Positions 37,496-45,466 of a DNA stretch of 64,000 bases are shown here, piece by piece; position 1 is the stretch's first letter, and every line of letters starts with the position of its first letter. Under the pieces are notes generated by a model that made no database searches, was not told the DNA's origin, and worked only from the letters and a program-made list of their open reading frames with translations. The stretch covers positions 50,095 through 114,094 of the IMG/VR virus record IMGVR_UViG_3300021961_000037; one strand, 5' to 3'. The stretch comes from a virus. Made by a program: the position numbers and the translations under genes.

Positions 37496-37858
37496 ATGTC
37501 ATTGACACAAAAACGACTGGTTGGTCCAACCCAACTCACGACGACGACAAGCACGGTCCTATACACCGTGCCGCAAAGCACGACGACCATCGTGAAGCAG
37601 ATTATCCTCTGCAACACGACTGGTTCTGCAGTAACCGTGACGCTGGTTTGCAAGCCGTTGAACGTCGCTCAGGCTTCTTCGCAGAACTTCTTCAACACCC
37701 TGTCGGTTGGGGCAAACGAAACATTGACCTTCCAAACCAACTTGGTTCTGACAAACAACGGAAGCACAGCAAACGCAACGAACAGTGACCAAATCATTGG
37801 TTCCGCAAGTGCAAACACCGCCATCAACATCATCATGAACGGAGTCGAAGAAGCGTAA
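37496..37858 (+). CDS. Fibre-tip adaptor (type 2-related)
   Basis: 'KRLVGPTQL..IVKQIILCNT' resembles 23865 and 27876. Confidence 0.65.
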   Translation: MSLTQKRLVGPTQLTTTTSTVLYTVPQSTTTIVKQIILCNTTGSAVTVTLVCKPLNVAQASSQNFFNTLSVGANETLTFQTNLVLTNNGSTANATNSDQIIGSASANTAINIIMNGVEEA

Positions 37859-38595
37859 TGGTCGCTAGTTTTGTTCGCCTGAACAACTCGTCACTTTCGA
37901 CAGCAGAGTCAACATCAAGCATTTCTGGCTCGCTGGTGAATTTGGCAAGTTATCTGAACCTTCCAGACCCTGTCTATGGGACTGGAGCGGATGGCGACGC
38001 AACCATTTCGGCTGACACCACGCTGACAAGCGACAAGTTCTACAAGAACCTCACGATTAACGCCAACATAAAACTAAACCCAGGCGGGTACAGAATATTC
38101 GTACAGAATGTTTTGACCCTAAACAGCGGTTCGGAGATTGGCTACACCACTGGATTTTCCACGGCTGGGACTCTCGCTCAAGGCGGAGCAACAAATACGG
38201 CAGTTACGCACAGCCTTGGTGGTTCTAGTGGCGCACAGACGGCGACTGCGCCAACGGCCGCCCTTGGTGGTTCTGCGTACTACCAGCAGCCCCTACAAGC
38301 GATTCGTGGCTGGGCGGTAACAGCAGCCTCAACTACTCCGACGTTCTTGCGTGGTGGTGCTGGCGGCTCGTCTGGCGCTGGTGGCGGAGTTGTTCTTATT
38401 TCGGCTCGCTATATCACCGTTTCTTCGGGTACTGCGTATTTCAAGGCGCCTGGAACTGCTGGTTCCGGTGGCGGTGGTGGCGGGGTCATTCTTGTTGTTT
38501 CCTCTGCGTCGGTACTTAATGCAAGTGTTTCCACTGATGTAACTGGAGGAACTGGCGCATCGGCTGGCACGGTGAACTACATGCAGGTGGCGTGA
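37858..38595 (+). CDS. Putative adhesin subunit
   Basis: 'YGTGADGD.TI..T.L..D..Y.NLT' N-terminus shared with 38597; GGGGG-VIL motifs. Confidence 0.6.
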   Translation: MVASFVRLNNSSLSTAESTSSISGSLVNLASYLNLPDPVYGTGADGDATISADTTLTSDKFYKNLTINANIKLNPGGYRIFVQNVLTLNSGSEIGYTTGFSTAGTLAQGGATNTAVTHSLGGSSGAQTATAPTAALGGSAYYQQPLQAIRGWAVTAASTTPTFLRGGAGGSSGAGGGVVLISARYITVSSGTAYFKAPGTAGSGGGGGGVILVVSSASVLNASVSTDVTGGTGASAGTVNYMQVA

Positions 38596-38596
38596 C

Positions 38597-39673
38597 ATGG
38601 CATTTGAGAGGCTTGGAGCAGACAGGAATCCCGTACAGAAGACGGGAACCGACAAATTGTTCGGTGCTGGCAGCGACGGAACAGTAACCATCTCCACGAA
38701 CACGTCGCTTTCACGCGACATGTATTACGCCAACCTCACTGTGAACTCTGGAATCACGCTTTTTACCAACGGATTCAAGATTTTTGTTAGCGGGAACTTG
38801 GTAAACGACGGCACAATAGGAATGCCTACTGGAACAGCACAGACGACTTCGGTCATGGCAGGAACGACCATGACGAGAATTGACGGTAATGCTGGGTATG
38901 TTTCGGGCGATGCCTTGTCGGGAACAATGACGATTGCCGAGGTCCGTGACATTGAAGCGCTTGTCACGGGCGTAATGCAAAAAGGTGCCACGCGAAGGGT
39001 GTGGTGGTCTGGTGCTACTGGAACTGCTGGCACTAGCGGAACCGCAAACCCCGGTGGTGGCGGAAATGCAACTGCTGGTACTGCGGGAACTGGTGGTTCG
39101 GCAGGTCAGGGCGGTGGCTCCGTTGTCGTTCTCGCCAAGTCAATTAGTGGGTCTGGAACATTTGTGAGCGAAGGAACTGCTGGAACTTCGGGAAATCCAG
39201 GAACCGCTGGAAGCAACGCACCGGGAAACCCAGGGCATAACCCCGGCGGGCATGCTGGCGCACATAATCCTGGCGGTCATGCACAAGGACATAACCCCGG
39301 CGGAACTGGCCATAACCCACCCGGTCACTTCCATCACCCCGGTCACCATCAGGCGCCGAATTGCGGAGTCCATGAAGTTTGGGGCTGCTCGCATCATCAC
39401 CCCGGTCACCACAACCCCGCGCACCAACACACAAACCCTGGAAACTCCTTCTCACATCCAGGAAACCCATTCCACTACTCACATCCAGGAAACCCATTCC
39501 ATTACAGTCACCCCGGCAACCCGTTCCACAACCCATCTTATTCTGGTGGCACTGCCAACCCAGGAAATGCAGGAAACCCAGGAAATGCTGGAAGTCTCGT
39601 TGTTTTGACCCGAGGAATCACTACCCATGTCGCAACCTCCAACTTGACATACGTGGAGGACCTAGATGACTAA
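38597..39673 (+). CDS. Putative adhesin with His/Asn/Pro/Gly-rich insert
   Basis: Paralogous scaffold to 37858 with a roughly 120-aa insert of HNPG and HPGNPF repeats around CGVHEVWGC. Confidence 0.7.
   Translation: MAFERLGADRNPVQKTGTDKLFGAGSDGTVTISTNTSLSRDMYYANLTVNSGITLFTNGFKIFVSGNLVNDGTIGMPTGTAQTTSVMAGTTMTRIDGNAGYVSGDALSGTMTIAEVRDIEALVTGVMQKGATRRVWWSGATGTAGTSGTANPGGGGNATAGTAGTGGSAGQGGGSVVVLAKSISGSGTFVSEGTAGTSGNPGTAGSNAPGNPGHNPGGHAGAHNPGGHAQGHNPGGTGHNPPGHFHHPGHHQAPNCGVHEVWGCSHHHPGHHNPAHQHTNPGNSFSHPGNPFHYSHPGNPFHYSHPGNPFHNPSYSGGTANPGNAGNPGNAGSLVVLTRGITTHVATSNLTYVEDLDD
39451..39531 (+). repeat. 27-bp coding tandem repeat x3 (SHPGNPFHY)
   Basis: ctcacatccaggaaacccattccacta twice nearly exact; third copy synonymously diverged. 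Confidence 0.85.
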
Positions 39674-44057: not shown

Positions 44058-44704
44058 AATCCAAGTTCCCCCTAGTCATAAAGCAACTTGTTCCAAGCGC
44101 TGAAGTCCGAAAATTCATATCCGACACACAAGGCAGTCAAAGAACAGTCAAAAGCACTGGGTGGGGTCGTGCCACCAATGACATACCGATAATAAAAGAC
44201 ATGTCAACCCAAACTATTGGTGGTTCGTTTTGGGACATTATGTATTCTTGCGCCAAGGAGCACTTTGGTGAAACGGCGCTCCCTTCATACTGGAAGTGGT
44301 CTCGCTATTCGCCAAAATACGGGGCGCCGAATATTCCACCACACATTGACATAAATGCGTGTACTTACACAATTGATTTGCAGTTGATGGGGGATGTTGA
44401 GTGGGAGATATTTGTTGAAGGGACACCATACACAATGCAAGACGGTGACGCCCTTTTATACCTTGGCTCTGAGCAAATGCATTGGCGACCCAAATACCCG
44501 AATCGCAACTATAAATCATTCTTGGAAATGTGTTTTATTCATTTTGTTGAACCCGGGCACTGGTATCACGAAAATGGTCCAAAGTGGATAGATTCAGATG
44601 ATGTGAGATTGCCGTGGAGAGAGAAAATGATGCATTTGCTGCCAAAATATAAGTGCGACACATATCAGCCATTTGAGGACCCAACTGAATTTCCCGGGTA
44701 CTAG
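44054..44704 (+). CDS. 2OG-Fe(II) oxygenase-like protein
   Basis: 'PPHID..CTYTID', 'W.I.V', 'GDALLY.G....HWR'. Confidence 0.75.
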   Translation: MKSKFPLVIKQLVPSAEVRKFISDTQGSQRTVKSTGWGRATNDIPIIKDMSTQTIGGSFWDIMYSCAKEHFGETALPSYWKWSRYSPKYGAPNIPPHIDINACTYTIDLQLMGDVEWEIFVEGTPYTMQDGDALLYLGSEQMHWRPKYPNRNYKSFLEMCFIHFVEPGHWYHENGPKWIDSDDVRLPWREKMMHLLPKYKCDTYQPFEDPTEFPGY

Positions 44705-44713
44705 GATTACCAG

Positions 44714-45466
44714 ATGGCAAATAACAAAATCACTGTTTACTGGTCCCCATCACACGCACTGGGAAGCCAGTATGAGTACAATCACCTCTACCCGTTCCCT
44801 GACTCTCTATATCAGGAGTTGGCACCGCTCAAGGCTGACCTAAAAGAAAACCGGGATGATTTTCTGAGGTGTCCAGCAGTAGGCAACAAAATGAAGAAAA
44901 CATTTGTGTTTAGGTCCTCCACAGATACGCATGTGAAGATTGTTGACGGACAGTACGTATCGTATTGGGTCAACTCGGAAGACGACAAACGGCGTCATCA
45001 AACCACGGTTGAACTGCTTCATTCCCCAACTCTTTTGAATCATTTTTTGTTGAACTACCTACATCCGGTTATTTTTTTTACGGATGTTGATTCATTGATT
45101 ATGTCTCTTACTCCGCCGTATTTTCACAAAACAACCCATTCGCAATACGGTGCAATCGTTCCTGGGGAGTTTGACATTGCTTCATGGTTTCGACCAATAA
45201 ATTTTGAATTTCAACTATGGGAGGGAGTTGACGAACTAATCGTTCCTGCTGGCGAGCCGTTGGGGTATGTGGATTTCCATACGAGCAGTCAGGTTGAATT
45301 GCGCAGGTTTAACATGACTCAAAATTTAAAGAAGATATCAAGTTCGCTTGTTCACGTCTCGCCTCACCGAAGGTATGCAAAGTTGTCTGAGAAGTACAAG
45401 TTGTTCCGCAATGCCCGCATATCCCAAGGAATCCTCAGAGAGATACGCGACAACCTTGTTGGCTAG
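44714..45466 (+). CDS. Conserved hypothetical protein of oxygenase cassettes
   Basis: 'FLRCPAV', 'IVPGEFDIASWFRP', 'GEPLGYV.F'. Confidence 0.65.
   Translation: MANNKITVYWSPSHALGSQYEYNHLYPFPDSLYQELAPLKADLKENRDDFLRCPAVGNKMKKTFVFRSSTDTHVKIVDGQYVSYWVNSEDDKRRHQTTVELLHSPTLLNHFLLNYLHPVIFFTDVDSLIMSLTPPYFHKTTHSQYGAIVPGEFDIASWFRPINFEFQLWEGVDELIVPAGEPLGYVDFHTSSQVELRRFNMTQNLKKISSSLVHVSPHRRYAKLSEKYKLFRNARISQGILREIRDNLVG

Follow-up and report, generated by a model that had tools for sequence, protein, structure and literature searches.

The stretch analysed here, a window of 64,000 nucleotides (nt), spans positions 50,095 to 114,094 of the virus record IMGVR_UViG_3300021961_000037 and forms the final 64 kb of a viral contig from IMG/VR that measures 114 kb and has an estimated completeness of 78%. 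In this window, the last cassette of a tail-fibre module ends in the genes for two tip proteins, T1 and T2, which are followed by a tight, co-oriented row of genes for 2-oxoglutarate (2OG)-Fe(II) oxygenases, a flavin-dependent halogenase with intact catalytic motifs and predicted dUTPase-fold proteins. Across related viruses, the linkage of T1 and T2 to the first oxygenase (O1), the halogenase and the dUTPase-fold protein u42045 (D) is near-obligate and resistant to rearrangement. We tentatively read the region as a Syn9-type tailoring module linked to the fibre genes and active late, whose enzymes would act on T2 or on neighbouring fibre proteins, and rate this reading a little short of evenly balanced. 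The enzyme set itself belongs to the known Syn9-type cluster and is not new; new are the family of His-rich tips, the near-obligate coupling of this family to the O1, halogenase and dUTPase-fold genes, and the hypothesis of a fibre substrate, which makes the fibre tip a concrete, if unproven, candidate substrate for viral halogenases. The genes concerned are the following:

35338..37494, plus strand: stalk protein of the fibre in the last cassette, 718 amino acids (aa), repeat-rich; phrog_356, 697 and 7389; syntenic in relatives.
37496..37858, plus strand: adaptor, 120 aa, 5' of the tip genes; phrog_20100; upstream of T1 in most relatives.
37858..38595, plus strand: T1, beta-solenoid tip protein by its AlphaFold2 model, 245 aa.
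38597..39673, plus strand: T2, tip protein, 358 aa, with a His/Pro/Asn/Gly-rich insert at nt 39212-39544; N-terminal domain related to T1.
39666..39974, plus strand: small open reading frame (ORF), 102 aa, overlapping at its start with the stop codon of T2; found in close relatives only.
39970..39988, plus strand: weak terminator-like hairpin at the boundary between fibre and enzyme genes, from a promoter/terminator scan.
40000..40602, plus strand: O1, prolyl 4-hydroxylase (P4H)-type 2OG-Fe(II) oxygenase; PF13640, HVD motif; the oxygenase with the tightest linkage to T1 and T2.
40607..42070, plus strand: flavin-dependent halogenase, 487 aa; PF04820.
42045..42908, plus strand: D (u42045), dUTPase-fold protein of phrog_7084 in which one Cys is invariant; overlaps the stop codon of the halogenase.
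42886..43353, plus strand: u42886, 155 aa, no family match; accompanies O1 and the tip genes in relatives.
43350..44057, plus strand: O2, P4H-type 2OG-Fe(II) oxygenase; PF13640, HHD motif.
44054..44704, plus strand: O3, cupin/2OG-like oxygenase; phrog_2954, HID motif.
44714..45466, plus strand: D2 (u44714), second member of the D family; phrog_17480 and phrog_7084.

All ORFs lie at the positions given in an earlier note on this DNA. The cassette genes run in the direction of the fibre genes and either overlap, as at the end of T2, or are separated by gaps of 4-26 nt; the start codon of D is uncertain because its reading frame is open from 41982. The promoter/terminator scan returned a number of sites not above chance.

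The linkage was followed in two sets of relatives, namely the best 80 of at least 574 IMG/VR matches to the window halogenase (43-75% identity) and the best 80 of at least 391 IMG/VR matches to T1 (50-91% identity), where a T1-anchored locus counted as evaluable if at least 6 kb of downstream sequence was present. In about 70 of the 75 evaluable halogenase-anchored loci, homologues of T1 and T2 lie 0.3-5 kb from the halogenase, which has O1 at its side and u42045 directly after it; four close relatives possess the complete block, from adaptor to u44714. A His/Gly-rich ORF with 19-108 His residues lies within 0.3-5 kb in 65 of the 80 halogenase-anchored loci; the remaining 15 are mostly truncated upstream or slightly under the threshold, with five true negatives. 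In the reverse test, anchored on T1, the halogenase is present in 55 of 55 evaluable loci, in which the linkage of the tip genes to O1 and u42045 holds as well. The earlier note had proposed testing whether such cassettes co-occur with adjacent His/Pro/Trp-loop adhesins; the Trp-containing loop is idiosyncratic.

Adjacency is kept through considerable shuffling. Besides the canonical order, we found O2 shifted upstream, the halogenase directly 3' of T2, the enzymes upstream of adaptor and tips, and an inverted cassette; on a quick tree of the halogenases, at least five independent gene-order events are needed. The five tip-less loci form a single clade of this tree, which also lacks O1, u42045, u42886 and O2, and in which the halogenase follows Gly-rich, His-poor fibre proteins with an adjoining oxygenase of the 33905 type. 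One relative carries, 5 kb downstream of its first cassette, a second block of adaptor, T1, His-rich T2 (709 aa), u42886-like and O1-like genes (L063:15481-20023), the locus ending before any second halogenase could show.

At the level of cultured phages, the region has no DNA match, and tblastn found no homologues of T1 or T2 in them. The general plan of fibre genes, halogenase, dUTPase-fold protein and oxygenase array is nevertheless shared by the cultured cyanophages Syn9/Syn10, S-RIM44, P-TIM40 and S-CREM1. In Syn10, a tail fibre gene (phrog_529) and fibre-type genes including two of phrog_863 are followed by a small phrog_1787 protein, two halogenases and a phrog_7084 protein, an order repeated in S-RIM44, P-TIM40 and S-CREM1; the latter has a 'collagen-like protein' (phrog_863) and a halogenase, a phrog_7084 member annotated as 'triphosphate nucleotidohydrolase', and as many as nine genes for 2OG oxygenases. 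The published text on the S-CREM1 virion proteome gives no ORF-level list for fibre-type genes or enzymes. In S-SRM01, the halogenase lies between genes for a 'putative tail fiber' and an 'adhesin tip complex'. Halogenase homologues also appear in Campylobacter phages, the Pelagibacter phage HTVC008M and human faecal phage contigs in the match list from a phage collection, and the family is therefore not restricted to cyanophages.

T1 is predicted by AlphaFold2 to be a beta-solenoid (predicted local distance difference test score, pLDDT, 88). Its PDB matches are weak and include Mtd-P1, the tropism determinant of phage BPP-1 (Z 6.5), and bacterial adhesins; stronger are its best BFVD matches, predicted collagen-like proteins of giant viruses (E 7.6e-12). 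T2 stands out by composition, with 26 His residues (7.3%, versus 1.1% across 23 other window proteins), of which 25 fall within a 111-aa insert at residues 206-316. This confirms the His/Pro repeat insert around CGVHEVWGC (nt 39362-39388) described in the earlier note: HNPG occurs three times and HNPPG once, HPGNPFH three times, twice as SHPGNPFHY, and both repeat blocks rest on 27-nt DNA tandem repeats in two arrays. The T2 of the window contains three HxH motifs, relatives about nine per protein, and its Gly-X-Y runs reach only three to four triplets, with long runs in relatives L079 and L060. A second, unrelated family of His-rich fibre proteins, about 320 aa long, was seen near the cassette in one subclade; its N-terminus resembles a tail collar, and HxH motifs (AHTHG, SHTHG, DHYHG) are numerous (L064:12624-13643, L067:2625-3590 and L074:3815-4783).

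The homologous His-rich segments are hypervariable. Among 52 distinct examples, the length ranges from 96 to 515 aa, and the pooled composition is 20.9% His, 14.6% Gly, 10.7% Ala, 9.4% Pro, 9.3% Asn, 3.6% Tyr and 0.8% Trp. Pro, Asn and His are present in every segment, while Tyr is missing from one, Trp from 20 and Cys from 34. The earlier note had proposed the Trp of CGVHEVWGC as the halogenation target. In the four closest T2 homologues, however, the loop position reads ...HNAGYC, ...HHYGQC or ...HHHGHC, or is missing, and this lack of conservation rules the loop Trp out; T1 has no conserved Trp either. Since Trp is missing in 20 of 52 segments, no conserved Trp can be the halogenated side chain. 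Should the halogenase act on this segment, His would be the first candidate, as no other aromatic residue occurs in every example, followed by Tyr; or else the target lies elsewhere.

On the enzyme side, the halogenase matches PF04820 (Trp_halogenase) over its full length (E 6e-98; residues 4-447 against profile positions 1-448 of 458). It has GSGTSG (GxGxxG) at residue 9, WMWEIP (WxWxIP) at residue 258 and FVEPLE (FxEPLE) from residue 326, and its Lys75, within ATHKYG, aligns with the motif ATYK found in Trp halogenases and in the two enzymes of Syn10. When the protein is aligned to Trp halogenases by HMMER, the alignments are interrupted between residues 95 and 143 and end near residue 426, so that the substrate-binding region is not alignable. 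O1 (E 8e-13, 49.6 bits) and O2 (E 2e-9, 38.6 bits) belong to the prolyl-hydroxylase-type family PF13640 (2OG-FeII_Oxy_3; gathering cut-off 27 bits), as do the window genes 49056 (57.8 bits), 33905 (40.1 bits) and 45674 (27.8 bits), each with its HxD motif. The dioxygenases between 33.9 and 49.6 kb are mutually distant and of PF13640, PF13759 and phrog_2954 types; no JmjC Pfam match was found among the scanned window proteins, a search that divergent members may escape.

These assignments agree with the earlier note as to the halogenase at 40607 and the oxygenases at 40000, 43350 and 44054. Of the three proteins that it had left uncharacterised, u42886 indeed has no family match and could, speculatively, be a fibre chaperone, but u42045 and u44714 could be assigned to a single dUTPase-fold family, phrog_7084. 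The AlphaFold2 model of u42045 (pLDDT 87) matches the dUTPase/dCTP-deaminase superfamily, with Z 9.1 to 3h6x and 22 consecutive superfamily matches before the next drops to Z 4.2. A profile of 43 family members likewise matches only dUTPases in the PDB (21 of 21), with marginal E-values (best 0.024) and over motifs III-IV. The catalytic Asp of motif III aligns to His or Asn in the family, and PF00692 has no match anywhere in the contig even at E <= 10, which together rule out u42045 as an active dUTPase; Cys69 is invariant over the 43 sequences. u42045 is the protein described in the dioxygenase/halogenase cluster of cyanophage Syn9 (Iyer et al., 2010, PMC2938197), and hhalign of u42045 against Syn10 CPUG_00130 gave 97.5%. 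The family comprises 2,722 cluster representatives at E <= 1e-3, and a pattern scan of limited sensitivity found no close relatives in cellular genomes. Two scans were made for the context of distant dUTPase-fold members; one had no match, and the other gave L182:1113-13102, where a member with 27% identity belongs to an array that also encodes three 2OG oxygenases, a JmjC/cupin protein and an S-adenosylmethionine (SAM) methyltransferase; neither a halogenase nor a recognisable fibre-type gene occurs within 8 kb on either side. For LooH, a nearby PDB match, we found no literature.

Combining these observations, we propose that the last fibre cassette would end in two beta-solenoid tip proteins, the second of which would display the hypervariable His/Pro/Asn/Gly segment, a segment that probably binds metal. 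The enzymes encoded behind T2 would be expressed with the fibre genes and would modify the tip, or other fibre proteins of the virion close to it, at the late stage of assembly. The P4H-type oxygenases may hydroxylate Pro, which often stands in an X-Pro-Gly context, and perhaps Asn or His as well; using flavin reduced by the host and working with its dUTPase-fold partner, the halogenase may halogenate an electron-rich side chain. Besides the linkage and the packing, this reading is favoured by the oxygenases that lie among tips within the fibre module, the match of T1 to collagen-like proteins of giant viruses, the long Gly-X-Y runs of some T2 relatives and the recurrence of the plan in cultured cyanophages, S-SRM01 included. 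In the same direction point VirX1, a halogenase of Syn10 that is a trimer with a large open active site and has no known natural substrate (PMC8407142), and the dioxygenase substrates that Iyer et al. (2010) proposed for bacterial operons. The model in its full form, in which phages tailor their own receptor-binding tips by hydroxylating a metal-binding His/Pro/Asn segment with P4H-type oxygenases and halogenating it, possibly on His, with a VirX1-type halogenase and its dUTPase-fold partner, we regard as rather unlikely.

Several points weigh against tailoring of the fibre tip. Its support consists entirely of genomic context, and all of the relatives' loci belong to related aquatic myoviruses. 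The region 3' of fibre genes is a known plastic zone, in which local shuffling would keep genes close without a functional tie. The His-rich segments lack a conserved Trp, and no flavin-dependent halogenase is known to halogenate histidine. As the earlier note had observed for the window, a flavin reductase (PF01613) is missing, and this holds for the whole 114-kb contig at its 78% completeness; host reductases serve many flavin-dependent halogenases, however, so that the missing gene does not exclude halogenase activity. The predicted dUTPase fold of the halogenase partner may hint at a nucleotide ligand. In P-SSM2, the halogenase follows nrdAB, and in HTVC008M, where it is coupled to a PhyH dioxygenase, the terminase subunit genes lie on its two sides; both positions are away from fibre genes. 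Finally, homology of T1 was undetected both to the Gly_rich_2 tip 32664 of the window and to the cyanophage phrog_863 proteins; the latter implies that the enzymes are common across lineages while the neighbouring fibre proteins differ.

Some of these points feed directly into the most serious rival, a secondary-metabolite or auxiliary-metabolic island, in which the enzymes would act serially on an amino-acid-derived small molecule, or on host metabolites or proteins, during infection, and the proximity to fibre genes would reflect only an insertion-tolerant, late-expressed region. We consider it a real possibility, if clearly below even probability, and an auxiliary or metabolite role therefore still stands against the earlier note's claim that the enzymes are directed at the adhesin instead of being generic auxiliary genes, a claim otherwise favoured by the linkage, the co-oriented packing and the P4H-type oxygenases. 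Iyer, Abhiman, de Souza and Aravind (2010, PMC2938197) described the Syn9 cluster and took it to make halogenated secondary metabolites, in analogy to cephamycin-type pathways; in the same paper they suggested that the dioxygenases of certain bacterial operons act on collagen-like and tail-collar proteins. Cyanophage studies class prnA and the 2OG oxygenases as auxiliary genes for antibiotic protection, DNA repair or 2OG modulation (PMC2984593, PMC3037559, PMC9602691, PMC9964418), one of them stating that their functions in viruses are uninvestigated. VirX1 halogenates many small aromatics in vitro (PMC8407142). The changing fibre families beside the enzymes, the halogenases of P-SSM2 and HTVC008M, and the oxygenase/JmjC/methyltransferase array of L182 fit a metabolite island as well. 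On the other hand, the cassettes examined contain zero genes for peptide synthetases, precursors, transporters or resistance; T1 and T2 stay linked through at least five rearrangements, O1, D and u42886 are lost jointly with the tips, and the genes are packed with structural genes in partly overlapping frames. The pattern scan, within its limited sensitivity, also found no relatives of D in cellular genomes.

The substrate might instead be a small co-encoded protein, such as 39666, u42886, a DUF6171 protein or cyanophage phrog_1787, in a true RiPP-like (peptide made by ribosomes and then modified post-translationally) or small-protein maturation. This appears improbable to us. Between tips and halogenase, the window does have a small ORF (39666), as do cultured cyanophages (phrog_1787), u42886 travels with O1, and the flavin halogenases MibH, SrpI and ChlH are known to act on peptides; yet 39666 occurs in close relatives only and has no family match that would tie it to phrog_1787, and the candidates lack a family match or an obvious leader/core layout, as the region lacks a protease or exporter. 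The RiPP-like logic that the earlier note had seen in T2 itself does not hold up for similar reasons, since the candidate substrate has 358 aa and neither leader/core, recognition element, protease nor exporter was found between 37.8 and 49.6 kb. Least probable, and in our view very improbable, is a modification of nucleotides or DNA, in which a (deoxy)nucleotide would be the ligand of the dUTPase-fold proteins and bases would be the target of oxygenases and halogenase. The fold and profile matches of u42045 and the annotation of its S-CREM1 homologue point in this direction, but the loss of the motif-III Asp and the absent PF00692 match speak against it, as do oxygenases of P4H type and not of the TET/JBP or AlkB types, a cassette without nucleotide-metabolism genes, and a linkage to fibre genes, not to replication genes.

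The island around the cassette is larger than the earlier note had drawn it; the genes that it listed are as placed, and to them are added two oxygenases that lie among tip genes in another part of this fibre module and a minus-strand unit (45488-49586) that converges on the cassette and contributes two intact oxygenases and one degenerate one:

33905..34438, plus strand: 2OG-Fe(II) oxygenase; PF13640, phrog_274, HTD motif; in the fibre module, directly 3' of the Gly_rich_2 tip 32664.
34435..35049, plus strand: 2OG-Fe(II) oxygenase within the fibre module; PF13759 (2OG-FeII_Oxy_5), phrog_81.
45488..45646, minus strand: DUF6171 small Cys-rich protein.
45674..46429, minus strand: 2OG-Fe(II) oxygenase; PF13640.
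46430..47002, minus strand: degenerate P4H-like protein; HxD motif missing.
47027..47254, minus strand: DUF6171 small Cys-rich protein.
47557..48276, minus strand: FN3 domain, then a Pro9 run and a Cys-rich module.
48276..48995, minus strand: short fibre-type protein; phrog_8780 and 18179.
49056..49586, minus strand: 2OG-Fe(II) oxygenase; PF13640, E 2e-15.

The two DUF6171 proteins are paralogous, share the motif C..CP...C.ECGCFM..KT.L..A.CPIGKW and flank minus-strand oxygenases. After the island, at 49622-53248, the window encodes a 1208-aa protein with long poly-Thr and Pro/Glu-rich linkers, a region of beta-helix-like repeats and C-terminal hydrophobic segments, homologues of which also lie 3' of the cassette in many relatives. 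The window is that of a contractile-tail phage, with sheath, baseplate wedge and tape-measure-like genes followed by the long multi-cassette tail-fibre module; psbA, a cyanophage hallmark, was not found in the contig.

Relatives carry further genes around the cassette. Additional tailoring-type enzymes include a family-2 glycosyltransferase (GT2; L028:14042-14878, E 4.5e-16) and, at L051:11518-12057, a weak sulfotransferase-like match under the Pfam cut-off (E 3.7e-4); the extra ORFs between O1 and the halogenase have no Pfam match. Most relatives also encode, a few kb downstream of the halogenase, a three-helix membrane protein of about 95 aa with 7-10 Trp ('...QWWWLYIFA...TLPTIILFN...HFWWF'), for example at L016:7994-8278, L044:12224-12514 and L093:12933-13226 and in about 55 other loci. 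It is a three-helix membrane protein and missing from the window, which rules it out as the halogenase substrate; a role as a small transporter or a holin-like role is possible.

Marine and freshwater myoviruses carry prnA/VirX1-type halogenase genes plus up to two dozen 2OG oxygenase genes, whose roles have been guessed at since 2005-2010 as antibiotic protection, DNA repair, 2OG modulation or secondary metabolism; in the literature searched, we found neither tests of these roles in viruses nor work linking the phage cluster to fibre proteins. Given the rearrangement-resistant linkage to a His-rich tip and the same plan in cultured cyanophages, the question is open to direct experiment on cultured phages. 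If the full tailoring model is true, no enzymatic system for the hydroxylation and halogenation of a virion protein would have been known from bacteriophages before, and the class of natural substrates on which viral flavin-dependent halogenases act would be identified. If the fibre-substrate hypothesis is true, enzymatic post-translational tailoring would join the ways in which phages vary and harden their adhesins, and a natural protein substrate for VirX1-type enzymes would be of use to biocatalysis.

Compared with known systems, the window is closest to the Syn9/Syn10 cluster (PMC2938197), with which it shares the dUTPase-fold gene directly after the halogenase gene, the conserved Cys of the encoded protein and several mutually distant 2OG dioxygenases, and, with Syn10, S-RIM44, P-TIM40 and S-CREM1, the position 3' of fibre-type genes. 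It differs in having one halogenase instead of two and no JmjC member detected by Pfam, and the six intact oxygenases of its island lie on both strands, with two more in the fibre module, unlike the 9-10 in tandem of the Syn9 type. The preceding fibre proteins, T1 and T2 with its His-rich insert, are not detectably related to phrog_863, and we propose fibre modification where secondary metabolites have been the published interpretation. VirX1 of Syn10 (PDB 6qgm) is of the same family as the window halogenase, is phage-encoded within the same genomic plan and shares the GxGxxG and WxWxIP motifs, the catalytic Lys and the Glu of FxEPLE, but the window enzyme is only 25-29% identical to the two Syn10 halogenases.

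For the proposed hydroxylation, Mimivirus L230, a lysyl hydroxylase/glycosyltransferase, offers a precedent in which a virus-encoded enzyme hydroxylates viral collagen (PMC5802723, PMC9546862). As with L230 and viral prolyl 4-hydroxylases, a viral 2OG oxygenase here adjoins Gly-rich, possibly collagen-like virion surface proteins; unlike in Mimivirus, the virus is a bacteriophage, the Gly-X-Y runs of T2 are short and a glycosyltransferase is absent from the window, the GT2 gene being found in L028. For the proposed halogenation, the window resembles the MibH, SrpI and ChlH systems in placing a flavin-dependent halogenase gene beside a ribosomally made candidate substrate, but those enzymes act on Trp, which is unconserved here, and the candidate is a 358-aa structural-type protein without leader/core or further RiPP machinery. 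Lastly, the His-rich tip sequence of T2 with its HxH motifs recalls the iron-binding needle of the T4 gp37 type; in contrast to that ordered needle, the T2 segment is of low complexity (pooled His 21%) and hypervariable in length, from 96 to 515 aa.

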